This document shows, one piece after another, positions 1 through 8,083 of a stretch of DNA of 8,083 bases. The translations under genes and the position numbers were made by a program. The notes under the pieces are model-generated. The model saw nothing but the letters and a program-made list of their open reading frames with translations. It had not been told where the DNA came from and searched no databases. How positions within the stretch are numbered: the first letter of the stretch is position 1; every line of letters begins with the position of its first letter. The DNA is from a virus (Duplodnaviria; Heunggongvirae; Uroviricota; Caudoviricetes): IMG/VR virus record IMGVR_UViG_2695420847_000016, positions 1 through 8,083 of that record. The stretch is one strand, 5' to 3'.

Positions 1-500
1 CGCGTCGTTCTCTGGGATTACCGGCGGAAAAAATCCGCTCCGTATACCGTGAAAGCGACATCATACCGGGAGAACAGACCGCCACCAGCATACTGAAGCA
101 GCGCACAAAAAATATTGCGCTACCGCCTCACACCCACCAGCAACAGAACCCACCACAGGAAAAGACGGTGGTCAGCATTGCCGTTGATCCGGAGTCTCCG
201 GAATCCTTCATGAAACGACCTAAACGTCGCCTCTGGGTAAATGAGAAATACACACGCTGGGTAAAGACACAGCCGTGTGCGTGTTGTGGTAAGCCAGCGG
301 ACGATCCTCATCATCTGATTGGTCATGGTCAGGGTGGAATGGGAACAAAATCCCACGATATTTTCACGCTACCGCTGTGTCGGGAGCATCACAACGAGCT
401 TCATGCGGATCCGCTGGCGTTCGAAGAAAAGCATGGTTCCCAGGTTGATTTAATTTTTCGTTTTCTTGATCACGCTTTTGCAACCGGCGTGCTCGGGTAA
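1..500 (+). CDS. Phage zinc-finger protein of the YdfU/YbcO (DUF968/DUF1364-like) type; 5' end lies outside the window
   Basis: The frame is open from base 3 to TAA at 498-500; the ORF track shows only the internal GTG at 168. The C-terminal part has a Cys/His pattern (CACCGKP...HH...GTK...CREHH). The gene sits directly upstream of rusA, as in lambdoid nin regions. Family assignment is from motif and context, not a search. Confidence 0.6.
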   Translation, partial: RRSLGLPAEKIRSVYRESDIIPGEQTATSILKQRTKNIALPPHTHQQQNPPQEKTVVSIAVDPESPESFMKRPKRRLWVNEKYTRWVKTQPCACCGKPADDPHHLIGHGQGGMGTKSHDIFTLPLCREHHNELHADPLAFEEKHGSQVDLIFRFLDHAFATGVLG

Positions 501-512
501 AAGAGGTTACTG

Positions 513-884
513 ATGCGTATAGAGTTTGTTTTGCCTTACCCGCCGACGGTGAACACCTACTGGCGACGTCGTGGCAGCACATATTTTGTATCAAAAGCCG
601 GTGAGCGTTATCGCCGGGCTGTGGCGCTTATTGTTCGCCAGCAGCGGCTGAAATTAAGCCTGTCCGGACGGCTGGCAATAAAAATTATTGCAGAACCACC
701 GGATAAGCGCCGCCGTGACCTGGACAACATTCTGAAAGCACCGCTGGATGCGCTGACGCATGCGGAAGTGCTCATTGATGACGAGCAGTTTGATGAAATC
801 AATATTGTGCGCGGTCAGCCTGTGCCAGGTGGACGGCTGGGCGTGAAGATTTACGAAATCAGAGGTGGTAACGATGGCGCGTGA
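513..884 (+). CDS. rusA: RusA Holliday-junction resolvase (crossover junction endodeoxyribonuclease)
   Basis: 123-aa ORF with AAGAGG 5 nt upstream of ATG 513. The protein has the RusA-type acidic core ([20 protein letters not shown]) and length matching E. coli RusA. Confidence 0.88.
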
Positions 885-1245
885 TATCCAGATGGTTCTT
901 GAGCGATGGGGGGCATGGGCAGCAAATAATCATGAAGATGTAACATGGCCCTCGATAGCTGCTGGTTTTAAAGGATTAATCCCGACTAAAGTGAAATCAC
1001 GTCCTCAGTGTTCTGATGATGACGCCATGATAATTTGTGGTTGTATGGCACGATTAAACAAGAATAATCAGTATTTGCACGATTTGTTGGTGGATTATTA
1101 CGTAGGTGGAATGACATTTATGGCTCTTGCACGTAAGCATAGATGTTCTGATGGGCTTATTGGTAAAAGGCTTTATAAAGCGGAAGGTATTATTGAAGGA
1201 ATGCTTATGGCTCTGAATGTCCGGTTAGATATGGATATGCGGTAG
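874..1245 (+). CDS. Late-gene antiterminator Q, short (about 125 aa) Q family as in DLP12-type prophages
   Basis: ATG 874 is preceded by AGAGGTGG (861-868) and overlaps the rusA stop (ATGGCGCGTGA). The sequence [25 protein letters not shown]...CGCMARL matches my memory of QuuD-like Q proteins. The track start GTG 865 is probably too far upstream. Confidence 0.8.
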
Positions 1246-1336
1246 GGATATATAGTGATGAGGGTTATGTTTTCTGTGTTTATAATTAACATGTTTATTT
1301 TTTGATGGTCATGTATTGTGGAAGGTAGATAAAATG

Positions 1337-1365
1337 TTGCCTGGTGAATTGAAAATATTGATAAT
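1337..1365 (+). promoter_or_regulatory. Candidate sigma70 promoter (TTGCCT-N17-GATAAT) in the AT-rich spacer between Q and the CPBP gene
   Basis: Hexamer match with 17-bp spacing, about 30 nt upstream of the CPBP ribosome-binding site. It could be the PR'-equivalent late promoter or a cargo promoter. Sequence match only. Confidence 0.25.
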
Positions 1366-1396
1366 CAATCTTCATCATTAAATAAAAGGAGTGCTT

Positions 1397-2215
1397 ATGT
1401 GGATTGTGTTAGTACTGTCACTGTCAACTCTCAGTTGGCATAAGGTAGTGGCTTTTTCATTGTTGACGGTGTCTGTTGTCCTGGCTGTGCTTAATGATAT
1501 TATTGATTGGTCGGTGTTATTTTTTGTTGCTACAATCGTTTTTTTTATTATTTTGAAGTTCAACTGGAAATATAACGCCTGGGCTAAATCTATATATGAA
1601 GTTGGCATAGTTTTATCAGCCATAGCATTATCTTTCCATCTATGGCCAGGGTTTCACAATCCTGTAGTGCTAAATTCTGTTACTGTTGGCCCTCAAAGTA
1701 CTCCCTATACAATGTATTTTAATTTTGATAAAGCGCTGGTGCCATTTTTGTTAGTCCTGTGTACATCTTCTTTGTTTAAAAAAGAAGTAAAATCAGAAGT
1801 GTCTTTGTGGAAGTGGGGGGCTCTGTCGCTCTCTGTTCCTCTTATCCTGTTTTTGGCTGTTTTTTTTGGTGGATTAAAGCCAGAGATTCATTTTCCTGAG
1901 TGGTTGCCAGAGTTTATATTGGCTAATTTGTTTTTTGTGTCTCTGGCAGAGGAATCATTATTTAGAGGGTATATTCAATCACGGCTATCAGAAGTAACGT
2001 CTCCATTGGTTGCATTAATTGTGGCGGCTTTGTTGTTTGGTTTTTATCACTATTCAGGTGGTGCTTTACTTGTATTATTTGCCACGTTATCTGGTGTTGT
2101 GTATGGATTGTCATGGATGTGGAGTGGGCGTTTGTGGGTTGCCACCCTTTTCCATTTTGGTTTGAATCTGTGTCACTTGTTATTCTTTACCTATCCATTT
2201 TTAAAACATAATTGA
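1397..2215 (+). CDS. CPBP-family (CAAX protease / Abi domain) intramembrane metalloprotease
   Basis: AAGGAG (1386-1391) lies 5 nt before ATG 1397; the track start GTG 1391 is 2 codons upstream. The protein is a multi-pass hydrophobic protein with all three CPBP motifs: EExxxR (LAEESLFRGY), FxxxH (FGFYHY) and HxxxN (HFGLNL). The gene is markedly AT-rich compared with the rusA/Q backbone. Confidence 0.8.
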   Translation: MWIVLVLSLSTLSWHKVVAFSLLTVSVVLAVLNDIIDWSVLFFVATIVFFIILKFNWKYNAWAKSIYEVGIVLSAIALSFHLWPGFHNPVVLNSVTVGPQSTPYTMYFNFDKALVPFLLVLCTSSLFKKEVKSEVSLWKWGALSLSVPLILFLAVFFGGLKPEIHFPEWLPEFILANLFFVSLAEESLFRGYIQSRLSEVTSPLVALIVAALLFGFYHYSGGALLVLFATLSGVVYGLSWMWSGRLWVATLFHFGLNLCHLLFFTYPFLKHN

Positions 2216-2295
2216 TTTTTTCTATGGTTTTAAATTTATAAGACTGAAAAATAGCAGGACGTGACATTTGCATGAAAAATATGCACGGCAAAGCA

Positions 2296-2309
2296 TTTAC
2301 GTACGTAAA
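2296..2309. promoter_or_regulatory. Perfect 14-bp palindrome TTTACGTACGTAAA, candidate operator
   Basis: Exact reverse-complement symmetry, in the intergenic region between the CPBP gene and the small winged-helix ORF. Function is inferred only. Confidence 0.2.
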
Positions 2310-2356
2310 AAATCAGGTATGCTGTTAAGAGTGGTTATTTCGCCGCATAGCTTGAC

Positions 2357-2378
2357 CCCGCCTCTGAGCGGGTTTTTT
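2357..2378 (+). terminator. Intrinsic terminator downstream of the CPBP gene
   Basis: CCCGC-CTCTGA-GCGGG hairpin followed by TTTTTT. Confidence 0.5.
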
Positions 2379-2501
2379 GTGCCCGCAAAGTAGCGCAGTG
2401 CGTTAAATGTGCTGGTAGTTATTAATACAGGTCTTTCAGCTTGCTGGCTTTTTCGGCAAGAGTTATTGGTGTGTCACGTTAACCGGAAAGGGTAAAAAGA
2501 C

Positions 2502-2699
2502 ATGCTGAAACAGCAGGATATGACAGAAACCGCCAGAGTTGTGTTTGATGAATTAAGCGTCACCGAACCGGCGACAGTCGGGGAGATTGCGCAGAATACT
2601 TACCTTTCACGCGAACGCTGCCAGTTAATACTGACCCAGCTTGTTATGGCGGGTCTGGCAGACTATCAGTGCGGTTGTTACAGACGCCTTCAGTCCTGA
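2502..2699 (+). CDS. Small winged-helix DNA-binding protein, PapI/FaeA-like (65 aa)
   Basis: ATG 2502 has a GGAAAGGG purine tract upstream. The segment TVGEIAQNTYLSRERCQLILTQLVMAGLA resembles the PapI/FaeA recognition helix region. Only the last ~49 nt are repeated in the second module (4573-4621), so the intact gene is unique to module 1. Confidence 0.5.
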   Translation: MLKQQDMTETARVVFDELSVTEPATVGEIAQNTYLSRERCQLILTQLVMAGLADYQCGCYRRLQS

Positions 2700-2770
2700 A
2701 GGCTTTTTTATTTGTGGTAAATGGGCGGCTGGTGGGTGTTAGCGGCACCTGTCAGTCCTTTGCTTATGTG

Positions 2771-2801
2771 TTGATGATAATTTACCTTTTGGGGCTATAA
2801 T
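2771..2801 (+). promoter_or_regulatory. Candidate promoter for the AraC-family gene (TTGATG ... TATAAT, 19-bp spacer)
   Basis: Perfect -10 hexamer TATAAT at 2796-2801 and a TTGATG -35-like hexamer at 2771-2776. Spacing is suboptimal. The same motif is conserved in copy 2 at 4690-4720. Confidence 0.25.
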
Positions 2802-2836
2802 TGAACTAACCAATTGCTAATGAAAGTAAAATTATA

Positions 2837-3550
2837 ATGGTTGTTGTCTGTTCAGTTATCATGGTTTGCTCCCCAATTAATATTTTTCTTGAAAAGGATA
2901 CGTTGTCACTTAAGCCCGGCTCAGTCGTTCTGGCCACCAAATGCATCAGGGCGCTTTTCCTTATGCATTATGGCAAAGTTAAAATTTTCGATATAAACCA
3001 TTCCATAGTAAGTCAATATCTGGAAATTCAGCATAAGCTGACAAGAACTCATCTGACTGACGTTCCGCTTTATCTGTCACTGGAACCCAACAACCCTGCG
3101 TTGGCTGAGGCTTTAATTACCAGCCAGAGATTTTCCGGAGATACCACGGATATGTTTCTTATGATGGCATGCCTGTCGCTGTTTGAATCAGATGAACGGA
3201 TATTATTATTTTTAAGTGGATGTTTATCCAGTATAAGTACCAAAGTCAGGGCGATAATTCAGACAGATATATCAGCAAGCTGGACGCTTGGTGCGATTGC
3301 GTTACGCCTGCATATGAGTGAGAGTTTGTTAAAGATAAAACTGAAAAATGAAGGGCACATGTTCAGTCGCTTGTTGCTGGAAGAGCGGATGCGTGTTGCT
3401 GTGAATATGTTATGTTCCCGGCATGGATATGGACAGGCTGTAGCAGAAAAATGCGGTTATTCAAGCTGGTCCTACTTTATTTCTGTATTTCACCGCTATT
3501 ATGGCTTCCCGCCAGACAGATATGTATCCAGGCAAGGGCTTGATTATTGA
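2837..3550 (+). CDS. AraC/XylS-family transcriptional regulator (prophage-encoded, paralog 1)
   Basis: 237-aa ORF with a C-terminal double HTH typical of AraC family (WTLGAIALRLHMSESLL ... YGQAVAEKCGYSSWSYFISVFHRYYGFPPDRY). AT-rich. The start could instead be ATG 2861. Confidence 0.8.
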   Translation: MVVVCSVIMVCSPINIFLEKDTLSLKPGSVVLATKCIRALFLMHYGKVKIFDINHSIVSQYLEIQHKLTRTHLTDVPLYLSLEPNNPALAEALITSQRFSGDTTDMFLMMACLSLFESDERILLFLSGCLSSISTKVRAIIQTDISASWTLGAIALRLHMSESLLKIKLKNEGHMFSRLLLEERMRVAVNMLCSRHGYGQAVAEKCGYSSWSYFISVFHRYYGFPPDRYVSRQGLDY

Positions 3551-3578
3551 TTTTCATCTGATTATTATTTTTTGACCC

Positions 3579-3654
3579 GGCCCTTTAGCTCAGTGGTGAG
3601 AGCGAGCGACTCATAATCGCCAGGTCGCTGGTTCAAATCCAGCAAGGGCCACCA
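3579..3654 (+). tRNA. ileZ: tRNA-Ile2 (anticodon CAU, lysidine type), 76 nt with encoded CCA
   Basis: Cloverleaf built by hand: acceptor GGCCCTT/AAGGGCC, D-stem GCTC/GAGC, anticodon loop CTCATAA, T-loop TTCAAAT. Close to E. coli ileX rather than elongator tRNA-Met. The symbol is by analogy with the Stx-phage tRNA cluster. Confidence 0.8.
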
Positions 3655-3661
3655 TCACATA

Positions 3662-3738
3662 CCGCCATTAGCTCATCAGGAAAGAGCGCCAGCTTTCGAA
3701 GCTGGTTGCGCGGAGTTCGGGTCCCCGAAGGCGGTCCA
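3662..3738 (+). tRNA. argN: tRNA-Arg (anticodon UCG), copy with stem and T-loop irregularities
   Basis: Anticodon loop TTTCGAA between the CCAGC/GCTGG stem. It carries an A-A mismatch in the acceptor stem, an A-C mismatch in the T-stem, and T-loop TTCGGGT (G at the usually conserved A58). It may be impaired. The symbol is by analogy only. Confidence 0.6.
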
Positions 3739-3751
3739 TTATCTGTATCCT

Positions 3752-3828
3752 GCGTTGTTAGCTCAGCCGGACAGAGCAATTGCCTTCTAAGCAATCGGTC
3801 ACTGGTTCGAATCCAGTACAACGCGCCA
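3752..3828 (+). tRNA. argO: tRNA-Arg (anticodon UCU), canonical copy
   Basis: Acceptor GCGTTGT/ACAACGC, anticodon loop CTTCTAA, T-arm ACTGG-TTCGAAT-CCAGT, encoded CCA. Resembles E. coli argU-type tRNA. Confidence 0.85.
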
Positions 3829-3842
3829 CACTTATTTTCCCT

Positions 3843-3868
3843 GGCTCGCTTTTGCGGGCCTTTTTTTT
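3843..3868 (+). terminator. Intrinsic terminator after tRNA cluster 1
   Basis: GGCTCGC-TTTT-GCGGGCC hairpin (one G-U pair) followed by a run of 8 T. Confidence 0.6.
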
Positions 3869-3933
3869 AAATATCTCACAATTCAGGCGGTTGACTGTTG
3901 TCTGGTTTGCGGGGAGTTTGTTAAAAGAAACTG

Positions 3934-4041
3934 GCATGGTGAATCCCCCTGTGCGGAGGGGCGATCAGCAACCAGGTATATGGGATAATCGCGGATTCAG
4001 GTGCTGATACTGAATTCACCGGGAGGCACCCGGCACCATGC
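3934..4041. repeat. 108-bp dyad-symmetric element, copy 1 (100% identical to 6548-6655)
   Basis: Base-by-base comparison shows the two copies are identical. Ends are inverted repeats GCATGGTG...CACCATGC, with internal inverted repeats GGTGAAT/ATTCACC and CCCCT/AGGGG. Flanking sequences are only loosely similar. Confidence 0.8.
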
Positions 4042-4101
4042 TTTGCCACAAAAGTGTTGTTTCTGTTTTTCTCAAACTATCATCGTTATCCCTTTATTTC
4101 C

Positions 4102-4128
4102 GGCTGCGCATGGCGTGGCCTTTTTTTT
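4102..4128 (+). terminator. Intrinsic terminator upstream of the nanS-p fragment
   Basis: GGCTGCGC-ATG-GCGTGGCC hairpin with two wobble pairs, followed by 8 T. A related hairpin recurs at 6800-6825. Confidence 0.45.
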
Positions 4129-4214
4129 ACGACCAGCCACTGGCAGATGGCCATCCTGTAATTTGATTCCGGTTCCGGCTTTTTAACTCTGTTCCTGTAC
4201 ACGGGAGAAATTCG

Positions 4215-4739
4215 ATGTCGATTAAACATTATGATGTTGTCAGGGCGGCGTCGCCGTCAGACCTTGCGGAAAAGCTGACACATAAACTGAAAGAGGGCTG
4301 GCAGCCGTTTGGTAGTCCGGTGGCCATAACCCCTTATACCCTGATGCAGGCGATTGCAGCAGAAGGTGATGTGGTGGTCAGTGGTGCAACTGAGCCGGAG
4401 TGGTACTACGTCATCGTACTGGCCGGGCAGTCCAATGCCATGGCTTACGGTGAAGGGCTTCCGCTGCCGGATTCATACGATGCTCCGGATCCGCGTATTA
4501 AACAGCTGGCGCGCCGCAGTACAGTGACGCCGGGTGGGGCTGCCTGCAGATATAACGATATTATTCCGGCACGGGTCTGGCAGACTATCAGTGCGGTTGT
4601 TACAGACGCCTTCAGTCCTGAAGGCTTTTTATTTGTGGTGAATGGGCGGCTGGTGGGGGGGCGACACCTGTCAGTCCTTTGCTTATGTGTTGATGATAAT
4701 TTACCTTTTGGGGCTATAATTGAGCTAACCAATTGCTAA
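4215..4739 (+). pseudogene. nanS: 5' fragment (about 119 codons) of a nanS-p-type sialate O-acetylesterase gene fused out of frame to the edge of module copy 2
   Basis: The N-terminal sequence is near-identical to the ORFs at 6922 and 7548 up to ...RYNDIIPA (through nt 4570). From 4573 the DNA is the repeat also found at 2651 onward, so the ORF tail (RVWQTISAVV...) is read-through of sequence that is noncoding or in another frame in copy 1. Confidence 0.6.
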
Positions 4740-4755
4740 TGAAAGTAAAATTATA

Positions 4756-5469
4756 ATGGCTGTTGTCTGTTCAGTTATCATGGTTTGCTCCCCAATTAAT
4801 ATTTTTCTTGAAAAGGATACGTTGTCACTTAAGCCAGGCTCAGTTGTTCTGGCCACCAAATGCATCAGGGAGCTTTTCCTTATGCATTATGGCAAAGTTA
4901 AAATTGTCGATATAAGCGAATCCGTCGTAAGTCAATATCTGGAAAGTCAGCATAAGCTGACGAGGACTCGTCTGACTGACATTCCGCTTTACCTGTTGCT
5001 GGAACCCAACAATCCTGCGTTGGCTGCGGCTTTAATTACCAGCCAGGGATTTTCCGGAGAGGCCACGGATATGTTTCTTATGATGGCCTGCCTGTCTCTG
5101 TTTGAAACAGATGAACGGATGTCATTGTTTTTAAGTGGATGTTTATCCAGCATAAGTGCCAAAGTCAGGGCGATAATTCAGACAGATATATCAGCAAGCT
5201 GGACGCTTGGTGCGATTGCTCTACAGTTGCATATGAGTGAGAGTTTGTTAAAGACAAAACTGAAAAATGAAGGGGGCATGTTCAGTCGCTTGTTGCTGGA
5301 AGAGCGGATGCGTGTTGCTGTAAATATGTTATGTTCCCGGCATGGATATGGACAGGCTATAGCAGAAAAATGCGGTTATTCAAGCAGGTCCTACTTTATT
5401 TCTGTATTTCACCGCTATTATGGCTTCCCGCCAGACAGATATGTATCCAGGCAAGGGCTTGATTATTGA
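4756..5469 (+). CDS. AraC/XylS-family transcriptional regulator (paralog 2)
   Basis: 237 aa, same length as paralog 1, with 23 amino-acid differences by manual alignment. 17 of these fall in the N-terminal 135 residues. Confidence 0.8.
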   Translation: MAVVCSVIMVCSPINIFLEKDTLSLKPGSVVLATKCIRELFLMHYGKVKIVDISESVVSQYLESQHKLTRTRLTDIPLYLLLEPNNPALAAALITSQGFSGEATDMFLMMACLSLFETDERMSLFLSGCLSSISAKVRAIIQTDISASWTLGAIALQLHMSESLLKTKLKNEGGMFSRLLLEERMRVAVNMLCSRHGYGQAIAEKCGYSSRSYFISVFHRYYGFPPDRYVSRQGLDY

Positions 5470-5497
5470 TTTTCATCTGATTATTATTTTTTGGCTC

Positions 5498-5573
5498 GGC
5501 CCTTTAGCTCAGTGGTGAGAGCGAGCGACTCATAATCGCCAGGTCGCTGGTTCAAATCCAGCAAGGGCCACCA
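5498..5573 (+). tRNA. ileZ: tRNA-Ile2 (anticodon CAU), second copy
   Basis: Identical in sequence to 3579-3654. Confidence 0.8.
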
Positions 5574-5582
5574 TATTACATA

Positions 5583-5659
5583 CCGCTATTAGCTCATCGG
5601 GACAGAGCGCCAGCCTTCGAAGCTGGCTGCGCGGGGTTCAAGTCCCCGATGGCGGTCCA
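5583..5659 (+). tRNA. argN: tRNA-Arg (anticodon UCG), canonical copy
   Basis: Acceptor CCGCTAT/ATGGCGG (one G-U pair), anticodon loop CTTCGAA, T-arm CGGGG-TTCAAGT-CCCCG fully paired, encoded CCA. Confidence 0.75.
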
Positions 5660-5672
5660 TTATCAGCATCAT

Positions 5673-5749
5673 GCGTTGTTAGCTCAGTCGGACAGAGCAA
5701 TTGCCTTCTAAGCAATCGGTCAGTGGTTAGACTCCACTACAACGCGCCA
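5673..5749 (+). tRNA. argO: tRNA-Arg (anticodon UCU), copy with atypical T-loop
   Basis: Same acceptor and anticodon arm as 3752-3828, but the T-arm is AGTGG-TTAGACT-CCACT. The stem change is compensatory; the loop has A in place of the conserved C56. Confidence 0.65.
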
Positions 5750-5762
5750 CACTTATTTTCCA

Positions 5763-5786
5763 GGCTCGCTTCGGCGGGCCTTTTTT
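5763..5786 (+). terminator. Intrinsic terminator after tRNA cluster 2
   Basis: GGCTCGC-TTCG-GCGGGCC hairpin followed by TTTTTT. Confidence 0.6.
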
Positions 5787-5918
5787 GTATCTGCGCCACG
5801 CCCGGCGCATATCAACCACAGAGCCTTTCGGGGGTGAGCTTACGGAGTGGTCAGTGTGACTTTCTCTGTGGGCAGATCGCTCCCGGGCGTTGGCTCACCC
5901 ACCCAAAGGAACGTCACG

Positions 5919-6350
5919 ATGTTTGGAATCTTCAAAAAGAAAACCCGCAGAGCGGCAGCGGAAATTAAAAAGTTTGAGAAACGCGATCTGGCACAGGCGG
6001 TGATTAACGCTGCATACCTGGTGGCCTATGCAGATGGTGAATGCGAGGCATCCGAGAAAGCGAAGATCGAACAGGTCTTACGTAATCAGCCTGCGTTGTC
6101 TGCGTTTACCTCGGAAATTAATGCGATTAGCGCAACCATTATCGGTCAGCTGGATACCAATTTTAAAATTGGTCGTCGTGCCGCGTTACGCGAGATTGAG
6201 GATGTGAAACACGATACGCGTGAAGCGGAAGATGTGCTGGATGTGGCGGTGGCCATTGCGGAGGCAGACGGCGAAATTGAGCCGGAAGAGCGCAAGGTGC
6301 TGGAAGAGATTGCCGGTGTTCTGGGTCTTCGTCTGGAGAATCACCTGTGA
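5919..6350 (+). CDS. TerB-family (tellurite-resistance TerB-like) protein, 143 aa
   Basis: ATG 5919 has AAAGGA 8 nt upstream; the track start GTG 5847 is probably not used. Two acidic DG-containing repeats (AYADGECEASEKAKIEQVL and AEADGEIEPEERKVLEEIAGVLGL) match the layout of plasmid TerB as I remember it. Confidence 0.7.
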   Translation: MFGIFKKKTRRAAAEIKKFEKRDLAQAVINAAYLVAYADGECEASEKAKIEQVLRNQPALSAFTSEINAISATIIGQLDTNFKIGRRAALREIEDVKHDTREAEDVLDVAVAIAEADGEIEPEERKVLEEIAGVLGLRLENHL

Positions 6351-6514
6351 CGGTAAAACTGCGCCTGGCTGTGGCTGCACTCCTGCTGTTTCTGGTGGTG
6401 ATGGTGGATCTCACCAGCAGAATCATGTCGGTGCTGGCGGATGGGGTGCTGGTCTGCGGCATTGTGGTATTGCTGTGGCCGGTGATAAAAAGAAACAGCC
6501 TGCATAATGCTTGA
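6347..6514 (+). CDS. Hypothetical small hydrophobic protein (about 55 aa, two predicted membrane-spanning segments), translationally coupled to the TerB-like gene
   Basis: Not in the ORF track. GTG 6347 overlaps the TerB stop (GTGA) with GGAGA 7 nt upstream; an alternative start is ATG 6401. The frame runs to TGA 6512-6514 and encodes ...LRLAVAALLLFLVVMVDLTSRIMSVLADGVLVCGIVVLLWPVIKRNSLHNA. Confidence 0.35.
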   Translation: MTVKLRLAVAALLLFLVVMVDLTSRIMSVLADGVLVCGIVVLLWPVIKRNSLHNA

Positions 6515-6547
6515 TTTTTTTGTTTGCTGTTTATTAAAAACACTTCT

Positions 6548-6655
6548 GCATGGTGAATCCCCCTGTGCGGAGGGGCGATCAGCAACCAGGTATATGGGAT
6601 AATCGCGGATTCAGGTGCTGATACTGAATTCACCGGGAGGCACCCGGCACCATGC
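6548..6655. repeat. 108-bp dyad-symmetric element, copy 2 (100% identical to 3934-4041)
   Basis: See copy 1. It lies 267 bp upstream of the nanS-p start at 6922. Confidence 0.8.
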
Positions 6656-6680
6656 AAGAAAAAGAATGTGCATGCAAACA

Positions 6681-6706
6681 TGCCCCTCTCCGGAGGGGCA
6701 TTTTTT
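6681..6706 (+). terminator. Intrinsic terminator
   Basis: TGCCCCTC-TCCG-GAGGGGCA hairpin (8 bp) followed by TTTTTT. Confidence 0.6.
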
Positions 6707-6712
6707 ATGGGT

Positions 6713-6737
6713 AAAAAATGCCCGAATGGGTTCGGGC
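6713..6737 (-). terminator. Possible minus-strand intrinsic terminator facing the one at 6681-6706
   Basis: GCCCGAA-TGGG-TTCGGGC hairpin with AAAAAAT on its 5' side on the + strand, which is a T-run on the minus strand. No minus-strand gene is evident to its right. Confidence 0.3.
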
Positions 6738-6799
6738 AATAGCATGAGATACTGATATTGTTGTGTTGTTATCGTGTGGATTTTAACCAGGGTTTATCA

Positions 6800-6825
6800 G
6801 GCTGCGCAACTGCGTGGCCTTTTTT
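6800..6825 (+). terminator. Intrinsic terminator in the nanS-p leader
   Basis: GGCTGCGC-AACT-GCGTGGCC hairpin followed by TTTTTT; a diverged homolog of the hairpin at 4102-4128. Confidence 0.5.
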
Positions 6826-6866
6826 CATTTCTTGGGCTGTAGTCCCCGTGTGTCATTCAGGCTTCC

Positions 6867-7492
6867 GGACTACAGCCCACTCCATATCTGATTTAATACA
6901 CTATCCCGGCCGGGAGGAATAATGACATTTAAACATTATGATGTTGTCAGGGCGGCGTCGCCGTCAGACCTTGCGGAAAAGCTGACACACAAACTGAAAG
7001 AGGGCTGGCAGCCGTTTGGTAGTCCGGTGGCCATAACCCCTTATACCCTGATGCAGGCGATTACAGCAGAAGGTGATGTGGTGGTCAGTGGTGCAACTGA
7101 GCCGGATTGGTACTACGTCATCGTACTGGCCGGGCAGTCCAATGCCATGGCTTACGGTGAAGGGCTTCCGCTGCCGGATTCATACGATGCTCCGGATCCG
7201 CGTATTAAACAGCTGGCGCGCCGCAGTACAGTGACGCCGGGTGGGGCTGCCTGCAGATATAACGATATTATTCCGGCCGACCACTGCCTGCATGATGTGC
7301 AGGATATGAGTACGCTGAATCATCCGAAGGCAGACCTGAGCAAAGGGCAGTACGGCTGTGTCGGCCAGGGCTTACATATTGCCAAAAAACTGCTTCCGTA
7401 TATCCCGAATAACGCGGGGATCCTGCTGGTACCATGCTGTCGTGGTGGTTCGGCATTCACCCAGGGCGCGGAGGGGACATTCAGTGCGGACA
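6867..7492. repeat. Tandem duplication unit 1 (626 bp: 55 bp of leader plus the first ~190 codons of nanS-p)
   Basis: The sequence from 6867 recurs from 7493 with a constant offset of 626 bp to the window end. At least four single-base differences were seen, for example at 7205/7831, 7250/7876, 7268/7894 and 7396/8022. Confidence 0.85.
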
Positions 7493-7548
7493 GGACTACA
7501 GCCCACTCCATATCTGATTTAATACACTATCCCGGCCGGGAGGAATAA
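6922..7548 (+). pseudogene. nanS: nanS-p-type sialate O-acetylesterase, N-terminal 190 codons ended by the tandem-duplication junction (208-codon ORF)
   Basis: GGGAGGAATA lies before ATG 6922. The protein has a DUF1737-like N-terminus and the start of an esterase domain with a GQSN motif (VLAGQSNAMAYGEG). After ...TFSAD the frame runs into the duplicated leader (RTTAHSISDLIHYPGREE, stop). Confidence 0.55.
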
Positions 7549-8083
7549 TGACATTTAAACATTATGATGTTGTCAGGGCGGCGTCGCCGTCAGACCTTGC
7601 GGAAAAGCTGACACACAAACTGAAAGAGGGCTGGCAGCCGTTTGGTAGTCCGGTGGCCATAACCCCTTATACCCTGATGCAGGCGATTACAGCAGAAGGT
7701 GATGTGGTGGTCAGTGGTGCAACTGAGCCGGATTGGTACTACGTCATCGTACTGGCCGGGCAGTCCAATGCCATGGCTTACGGTGAAGGGCTTCCGCTGC
7801 CGGATTCATACGATGCTCCGGATCCGCGCATTAAACAGCTGGCGCGCCGCAGTACAGTTACGCCGGGTGGGGCTGCATGCAGATATAACGATATTATTCC
7901 GGCCGACCACTGCCTGCATGATGTGCAGGATATGAGTACGCTGAATCATCCGAAGGCAGACCTGAGCAAAGGGCAGTACGGCTGTGTCGGCCAGGGCTTA
8001 CATATTGCCAAAAAACTGCTCCCGTATATCCCGAATAACGCGGGGATCCTGCTGGTACCATGCTGTCGTGGTGGTTCGGCATT
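7493..8083. repeat. Tandem duplication unit 2 (partial; runs off the window)
   Basis: See unit 1. Confidence 0.85.
7548..8083 (+). CDS. nanS: nanS-p-type sialate O-acetylesterase (prophage paralog), 3' end outside the window
   Basis: ATG 7548 overlaps the TAA of the truncated copy (TAATGA). The reading frame is open to the window end, and the sequence is ~99% identical to 6922-7457. Confidence 0.7.
   Translation, partial: MTFKHYDVVRAASPSDLAEKLTHKLKEGWQPFGSPVAITPYTLMQAITAEGDVVVSGATEPDWYYVIVLAGQSNAMAYGEGLPLPDSYDAPDPRIKQLARRSTVTPGGAACRYNDIIPADHCLHDVQDMSTLNHPKADLSKGQYGCVGQGLHIAKKLLPYIPNNAGILLVPCCRGGSA

Follow-up and report, generated by a model that had tools for sequence, protein, structure and literature searches.

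Rce1 of Methanococcus maripaludis is a type II CAAX prenyl endopeptidase (PDB 4CAD). The Gram-positive Abi/CPBP immunity proteins PlnI, PlnLR, and SkkI, as well as MroQ and LnsB, two other CPBP proteins with assigned roles, come from loci for bacteriocins, quorum sensing, or lipoprotein modification. In Staphylococcus aureus, SpdC (LyrA) is the membrane partner of a glucosaminidase and does not have the catalytic residues. PlnI, PlnLR, and SkkI are reportedly bacteriocin immunity proteins that need the conserved motifs, in work attributed to Kjos et al. in 2010. The gene described here encodes a CPBP (Rce1/Abi family) protein and lies beside the antiterminator gene Q in an 8,083-nucleotide stretch of viral DNA (Caudoviricetes; IMG/VR record IMGVR_UViG_2695420847_000016, positions 1 to 8,083), referred to as the window. 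The start of the window is the late-regulatory end of an Escherichia coli lambdoid prophage. The coordinates of the features are given in Table 1.

The CPBP protein shares only 17% sequence identity with Rce1 and, unlike Rce1, has its own conserved loop motif in the N-terminal half (G85, N88, S101, N109, D111, and K112). E. coli is not known to have prenylated CAAX substrates. In contrast to SpdC/LyrA (PDB 6U0O, SagB-SpdC complex), the protein keeps all catalytic residues, and no partner gene adjoins its gene. It shares family and motifs with PlnI, PlnLR, SkkI, MroQ, and LnsB, but its gene is without neighbors of the kinds found beside theirs. The classical lysogenic-conversion gene lc (phage PA-2), or nmpC (DLP12), occupies the same slot, from a QuuD-type Q to the unit of the late promoter PR’, and is also accessory, being absent from related phages. 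Its product, an outer-membrane porin, has no relation to the CPBP protein in sequence or fold, and the porin gene is on the opposite strand.

The CPBP gene is already known and annotated, and the observation is real. The gene is probably an accessory moron in the slot between Q and PR’ that is expressed from its own promoter, is not under Q control, and converts the cell envelope, with an active peptidase predicted as its product.

Table 1. Coordinates of the features around Q and the CPBP gene, in positions of the window.
Feature	Position	Strand	Basis or remark
DUF968 gene, 3’ part	168-500
rusA	513-884
Antiterminator Q, QuuD/H-19B/933W type, 123 amino acids	874-1245	+	Pfam PF06530, E = 4.9e-52
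AT-rich intergenic spacer, 151 bp, 28.5% GC	1246-1396	+	candidate promoter and ribosome-binding site
CPBP gene (Rce1/Abi family)	1397-2215	+	272 amino acids; RefSeq calls the same open reading frame, WP_000265267.1
Predicted late promoter PR’ of the window Q family	2296-2336	+	positional conservation and 258-nucleotide match
PR’-proximal hairpin, stem CCCGC/GCGGG, 6-nucleotide loop, then T-run TTTTTTGT	2357-2378	+
TrmB-like winged-helix open reading frame, 65 amino acids, phrog_331, equivalent to ECs_1086	2502-2699	+	first open reading frame past PR’
AraC/YdeO-like regulator, counterpart of PsrA (ecs1087, Sakai Sp4)	2837-3550	+	context gene

Family assignment and predicted structure

The CPBP gene begins with an ATG, as in RefSeq. 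A GTG start at position 1391, proposed by the open reading frame (ORF) finder, overlaps the ribosome-binding site, AAGGAG, which is located at positions 1386 to 1391 and ends 5 nucleotides ahead of the ATG. A first-pass annotation, made from the sequence letters and a list of ORFs, had called this site strong, had described the three catalytic motifs of the family as intact, and had proposed a profile search and a topology prediction as checks. The site, the motifs, and the family assignment made at first pass are confirmed by the results in this section.

The Pfam profile PF02517 (Rce1-like) matches residues 169 to 258 of the protein with 70.6 bits (E = 1.4e-19), against a curated cut-off of 22.4 bits. 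The NCBIfam CPBP and myxosortase models give weak matches that are all below their cut-offs, which places the protein within the family and outside every named subfamily. Membership of the product in the CPBP family is established. In PHROGs, the protein belongs to phrog_13291, a group without an assigned function.

The motifs are EESLFR at residues 185 to 190 (EExxxR), FGFYH at 214 to 218 (FxxxH), and HFGLN at 253 to 257 (HxxxN). They are near-invariant in an alignment of 112 homologues, in which E185, E186, R190, F214, H218, and H253 do not vary and N257 is kept in at least 90%. The six residues of the N-terminal loop motif are also invariant in these homologues. This motif is specific to the family of the protein and lies outside the Pfam coverage.

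An AlphaFold2 model was built on the same alignment and has a predicted local distance difference test (pLDDT) value of 95.1 and a predicted template modeling (pTM) score of 0.92. The model is a multi-helix membrane fold, and the three motifs are placed on transmembrane helices 170-198, 203-217, and 246-263. A search of the PDB by sequence gave nothing, and matches came from fold comparison alone, where SpdC/LyrA and Rce1 were the only strong ones. The protein is likely an eight-helix protein of the inner membrane in which the Glu and His residues of the active site are intact. Catalytic activity is predicted from the conservation of these residues.

The slot between Q and the predicted late promoter

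Downstream of the CPBP gene is a conserved unit of about 85 bp that spans positions 2296 to 2378. A 14-bp palindrome, TTTACGTACGTAAA, at positions 2296 to 2309 overlaps a −35 hexamer, TTTACG (2296). The −35 is followed by a 16-nucleotide spacer, a −10 hexamer, TATGCT, at positions 2318 to 2323, and a predicted start near position 2330. The conserved leader reads GTTAAGAGTGGTT, or, in a fuller form, GTTAAGAGTGGTTA. The PR’-proximal hairpin (Table 1) completes the unit.

The palindrome is perfect and exists in two versions, TTTACGTACGTAAA and TTTACGATCGTAAA (window, 2296 to 2309; locus L127, 2926 to 2939; locus L013, 4753 to 4766). The change between them is central and paired, so that the palindrome is kept. 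A variant, ...ACGCGTACGC..., is present at a locus with a Q that is about 42% identical. A protein, either Q or another regulator, may bind to the palindrome.

The unit was surveyed in 80 IMG/VR loci, the annotated E. coli loci, and H-19B, all with the window Q family at 80 to 100% amino-acid identity. It is found downstream of Q in nearly every surveyed locus that reaches far enough, whatever lies between the two. The distance is 0 bp in H-19B and Sakai Sp5 (933W-type), where the unit overlaps the Q stop codon. Distances of about 505 to 516 bp hold unknown ORFs of 124 to 166 amino acids, distances of 881 to 911 bp and 1086 bp hold ORF6N-domain proteins, and distances of 1046 to 1065 bp hold the CPBP gene. 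A reverse-strand porin of the Lc/NmpC type is present where the distance is 1546 to 1700 bp, and further distances of 2374 and 3038 bp were recorded. A prophage of EC958 with an unrelated antiterminator of 273 amino acids has in common only the hairpin and the sequence past it.

In Sakai Sp5 and H-19B, the sequence from the predicted start (7 nucleotides past the −10) to the end of the T-run of the second terminator (tR’) is 258 nucleotides long. The same distance between PR’ and tR’ was mapped in both Sakai Shiga toxin (Stx) phages by differential RNA sequencing (dRNA-seq) and Term-seq (Sy et al. 2020; PMC7547250), and PR’ is described there as constitutively active. In Sakai Sp5, the equivalent of the PR’-proximal hairpin is read through, giving the 258-nucleotide RNA. 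The small RNA HnrS (PMC13502914), for which that paper states no location with respect to Q, was considered as a candidate for the short transcript from PR’. Because the two distances are equal, the unit is read as the PR’ of the window Q family, and for the window prophage it is a predicted PR’, from its conserved position and the 258-nucleotide match.

Since this PR’ is downstream of the CPBP gene, the gene would fall outside the Q-dependent late transcript and would not be under Q control. The regulatory reading that the first-pass annotation gave to the position beside Q is not supported. That the CPBP gene is the first gene of a Q-dependent late operon, placed between PR’ and the lysis genes like stx and expressed only upon induction, is extremely improbable. 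A homologue of another lineage, P0007 (described below), does have a Q gene and a promoter-plus-terminator unit ahead of it and a holin gene behind it, and the 150-bp region past Q in the window has promoter-like hexamers; against this, the conserved PR’ unit is downstream of the CPBP gene, and no terminator separates the gene from Q. In the window, the gene is not found downstream of PR’ and tR’, where stx lies. A related arrangement, in which the spacer at 1246 to 1396 is itself PR’ and the gene is expressed constitutively from the late promoter between PR’ and tR’, was rejected on the basis of the conserved unit downstream of the gene and the 258-nucleotide match.

A hairpin scan identified no terminator between Q and the CPBP gene, and none between the stop codon of the gene (2215) and PR’ (2296). 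The first-pass annotation had given the gene a terminator of its own. The hairpin with a T-run exists, but by alignment it is conserved within the PR’ unit even where a phage has no CPBP gene. It is not private to the gene, and the gene is without a flanking terminator belonging to it.

The region between a QuuD/H-19B-type Q and PR’ is more probably than not a hypervariable slot in which the CPBP gene is one occupant. The slot is empty in H-19B and 933W and elsewhere contains the CPBP gene, ORF6N-domain proteins, a porin, or unknown ORFs. The gene is present or absent among related phages at a fixed junction, and this variation in content supports the earlier description of it as accessory cargo next to Q and not phage backbone. 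The window Q family was found at 6183 places in 3877 genomes, and about 9% of the E. coli copies (579/6183) are accompanied by the CPBP gene. Q and the CPBP gene are contiguous in all complete genomes that have the latter (572/572), and the window Q family is directly upstream in 39/39 IMG/VR loci with the CPBP protein. A PF06530 Q precedes each of the CPBP alleles with 96, 84, 83, 62, and 59% protein identity, in prophages that are otherwise different.

From 0.535 in rusA, the GC fraction falls to 0.419 across Q (0.387 for the 3’ half alone) and to 0.285 in the spacer; it is 0.379 in the CPBP gene and returns to 0.51 in the next ORF. A sharp drop relative to both rusA and Q had been claimed at first pass. 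The drop is present relative to rusA, but Q is already part of the low-GC block, which, from the values for Q and its 3’ half, begins within Q.

P0007 (in the region from 4741 to 6268 of locus L138) is 55% identical to the CPBP protein and is encoded behind an antiterminator of a different Pfam family, PF03589. Upstream of P0007 is a promoter-like sequence, TTGATT-17-TATGCT, followed by a strong terminator with an 11-bp stem (4831 to 4856 in L138), and a holin gene is downstream. P0007 appears to be the first late gene of its own lineage and to be Q-dependent. From this arrangement, the recurrent feature is a cargo hotspot between Q and the lysis genes, with no single fixed regulatory position. 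The position of P0007 is that of stx in Stx phages. E. coli relatives of the Q gene of this lineage have in common only Q and about 60 nucleotides past it.

In a prophage of E. coli FORC_043 (locus L014, 1045 to 3437), the slot from Q to a PR’-like unit contains two reverse-strand genes, which encode a 404-amino-acid protein without a Pfam match and a ‘nucleoid-associated protein’. This pair may be another cargo module or a defense module.

Expression and function of the CPBP gene

The candidate promoter of the CPBP gene is composed of a −35, TTGCCT, at positions 1337 to 1342, a 17-nucleotide spacer, and a −10, GATAAT, at positions 1360 to 1365, with a predicted start near position 1372. The −10, the spacing, and the 31-nucleotide distance to the ATG are constant in four alleles (100, 96, 84, and 83% protein identity). 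The −35 of other alleles is TTGCCA or TTGTCA, for a match of up to 10/12. In the two alleles that diverge most, different promoter-like elements are found at about the same place. A hexamer scan of positions 800 to 3000 found 11 such elements against 6.0 ± 2.4 expected by chance. Promoter-like sequences belonging to the gene had been reported at first pass; the element at 1337 to 1365 stands as a candidate by its constancy, but the hexamers within the spacer reach at most 9/12 matches.

The CPBP transcript has been found in uninduced enterohaemorrhagic E. coli (EHEC), where it varies with growth conditions (PMC2654852; PMC7649339). Detection in uninduced cultures was by reverse-transcription PCR, microarray, and RNA sequencing. 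From the promoter conservation and these published data, the gene is most probably expressed in the lysogen from its own predicted promoter. As no terminator is found from Q to the gene or from the gene to PR’, read-through of the early rightward transcript should also express the gene upon induction.

In the proposed mechanism, a sigma-70 promoter belonging to the gene (1337 to 1365) would drive its transcription in the lysogen, and on induction the early rightward transcript, from which Q is made, would be read through into the gene as well. The mRNA would continue into the PR’ region, with its end at the PR’-proximal hairpin or further downstream. The protein would then bring about lysogenic conversion of the cell envelope, either as an active intramembrane peptidase or as a protease-like membrane partner. 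Expression should not follow the Q-dependent pattern of induction seen with Shiga toxin. A deletion that extends beyond about position 2290 would remove PR’, which bears on the design of knock-outs and reporters.

Two published observations concern the gene in contact with host cells. The CPBP transcript is increased 2.7-fold with HEp-2 cells. A deletion mutant no longer blocks the interferon-gamma-induced phosphorylation of STAT-1, and this phenotype can be complemented (Jandu et al.). Because the product is a multi-pass membrane protein, the STAT-1 phenotype cannot be the direct action of a released protease, and it could be an indirect effect. In Sp4-type prophages, the CPBP gene adjoins psrA, a type III secretion regulator, and one paper ties the CPBP gene to host signaling.

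Several points weigh against an own-promoter moron that acts on the envelope by proteolysis. The closest structure, SpdC, is that of a non-catalytic partner. The PR’ assignment comes from positional conservation and the 258-nucleotide match and was transferred from other prophages. The candidate promoter scores only 9/12, in AT-rich DNA. The transcript in ‘uninduced’ cultures could stem from a minority of cells that were spontaneously induced. The copies in 3 of about 39 IMG/VR contigs are frameshifted, which indicates that the gene can be lost. Given the P0007 lineage, the position of the gene relative to PR’ is also not fixed.

The first-pass annotation had suggested superinfection exclusion or defense as a role. 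An anti-phage factor that acts from the inner membrane by superinfection exclusion or abortive infection is rather unlikely. The gene is prophage cargo and is apparently expressed in lysogens. The Lc porin of phage PA-2, encoded by the best-known gene of this slot, changes phage receptors, and membrane-protein morons often stop the entry of DNA. None of the PADLOC-DB 2.0 profiles for defense families matches the CPBP protein, however, and phrog_13291 and the neighborhood offer neither a known function nor a partner gene; the CPBP gene stands alone in all contexts that were examined. The orthologues are solitary in core chromosomal neighborhoods of many Enterobacterales, unlike a defense island. 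The family name ‘Abi’ is a historical label and is not evidence of abortive infection. A literature search on whether CPBP proteins serve in phage defense or immunity in E. coli brought up no relevant work.

Immunity of the lysogen to a membrane-active bacteriocin or other toxin, as in Gram-positive bacteriocin loci, has little probability. It has in its favor the motif-dependent immunity ascribed to PlnI, PlnLR, and SkkI, together with the name ‘CAAX amino terminal protease self-immunity’, given to a Serratia homologue in one source. That name is an automatic annotation. No bacteriocin precursor, transporter, or toxin gene lies beside the CPBP gene in the window or in 12 related contexts, prophage or chromosomal. 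For the window, this agrees with the first-pass annotation, which had seen no bacteriocin-like partner gene.

A stronger form of the envelope-conversion reading is tentative and on balance unlikely. In this form, the gene would encode a true lysogenic-conversion protease, taken from a chromosomal lineage of Enterobacterales and kept by purifying selection beside two unrelated Q families. The protease would cleave a specific envelope or secreted substrate and so alter resistance to phages or toxins, or interaction with the host, as in the reported STAT-1 effect. If true, a CPBP protease would for the first time have been given a defined role in a Gram-negative prophage. The CPBP gene is a reasonable target for experiments.

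Distribution, origin, and remaining features of the window

The region from 1246 to 2400 is carried by 572 of the 5426 complete E. coli genomes that were searched and is at least 99% identical in 547 of these 572. Everywhere in these genomes, the gene is annotated as ‘CPBP family intramembrane glutamic endopeptidase’. The carriers make up about a tenth of complete E. coli genomes and are mostly EHEC or E. coli that make Shiga toxin (STEC). The known prophage copies do not differ from the window in the gene itself; they differ in that the window beyond about 4.1 kb is not collinear with any complete genome. A tblastn search with the CPBP protein against 50,697 deposited phage genomes gave no match, and the gene was met only in prophages and IMG/VR contigs.

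The copy in strain Sakai is ECs_1085 of prophage Sp4, with the reference annotation ‘phage CAAX amino terminal protease family protein’. Its neighbors are ECs_1084 (Q), ECs_1086, ECs_1087, three tRNA genes, and ECs_1088. The gene ecs1087 is named psrA in PMC13502914. PsrA is a prophage regulator of the GAD island and of type III secretion. Sakai Sp6, the positional counterpart of CP-933N, has a different Q gene and no CPBP gene.

Pairwise ratios of nonsynonymous to synonymous substitution rates (dN/dS) between the CPBP alleles are 0.13 to 0.24, and every allele has 272 codons. These values bear on whether the gene is a functionless hitch-hiker kept only by its tight linkage to the Q allele, which is very improbable. 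Some copies are frameshifted, and many of the host prophages are defective, such as those in E2855 and Sakai Sp4, which are riddled with insertion sequences. The low dN/dS, however, extends down to 59% identity with a constant codon number and invariant catalytic residues, and the gene was recruited beside two unrelated Q families.

Homologues of 270 to 305 amino acids with about 50% identity are widespread in Enterobacterales as solitary chromosomal genes without partners. They are located in core neighborhoods in Dickeya, Providencia, Hafnia, and Enterobacter, and a Salmonella homologue lies within an island. The Hafnia and Providencia homologues share the position modF-[CPBP]-galE/gpmA. Their coordinates are 8001 to 8831 in loci L003 and L004 (Providencia) and 6001 to 6918 in locus L135 (Hafnia), directly past modF and before gpmA or galE. 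The presence of the same modF locus in two families of Enterobacterales suggests an old, vertically inherited gene that is absent from E. coli. Lambdoid prophages of E. coli appear to have captured the gene from this solitary chromosomal lineage of other Enterobacterales. The first-pass annotation had weighed whether the gene is chromosomal housekeeping; this fits the relatives at about 50% identity, but the E. coli copies are always prophage-borne.

The window Q is 82.6% identical in amino acids to the Q of H-19B and about 84 to 86% identical to its counterparts in 434B and further phages. It has a distant match to the Q21 structures 6P18 and 6JNX (E = 7e-8).

The 65-amino-acid TrmB-like ORF is found after the PR’ unit even in prophages that have no CPBP gene and is a context gene, not specific to CPBP. 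It lies between PR’, whose 5-bp hairpin is weak, and a far stronger terminator-like hairpin at positions 2686 to 2703 that has a T-run of its own. If PR’ is constitutive and the first hairpin is leaky, as in Sakai Sp5, this ORF could be expressed in lysogens from PR’.

Positions 1 to 2700 of the window, which contain the CPBP gene, are collinear with real genomes. The window as a whole is collinear with no complete E. coli genome, and the best matches place five pieces on about 5.5 kb. Assembly may have merged similar prophages into a chimera in the distal part. Within it, the sequence at 6867 to 7492 recurs as a tandem repeat at 7493 to 8083 with 100% identity, 626 bp apart. Copies of positions 2742 to 3041 and 3654 to 3840 lie about 1920 bp downstream, with 96% and 90% identity, respectively, and positions 3934 to 4041 are equal to 6548 to 6655.

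The AraC/YdeO-like regulator (237 amino acids) has a second copy at positions 4756 to 5469 in addition to that in Table 1. A cluster of three tRNA genes with anticodons CAT, TCG, and TCT is also present twice (3579 to 3828 and 5498 to 5749) and is of the ileZ-argN-argO type of Stx and related prophages. Truncated DUF1737/SASA ORFs (nanS-p type sialate esterase) have three copies, at 4215 to 4739, 6922 to 7548, and 7548 to 8083, and a TerB-family ORF is located at 5847 to 6350. Rfam matches above the gathering score are two copies of the small RNA STnc100 (108 and 143 bits) and the anti-GcvB sponge AgvB (96.5 bits). These matches are located at 3905 to 4077 and 6519 to 6712 on the plus strand and at 6713 to 6774 on the minus strand.

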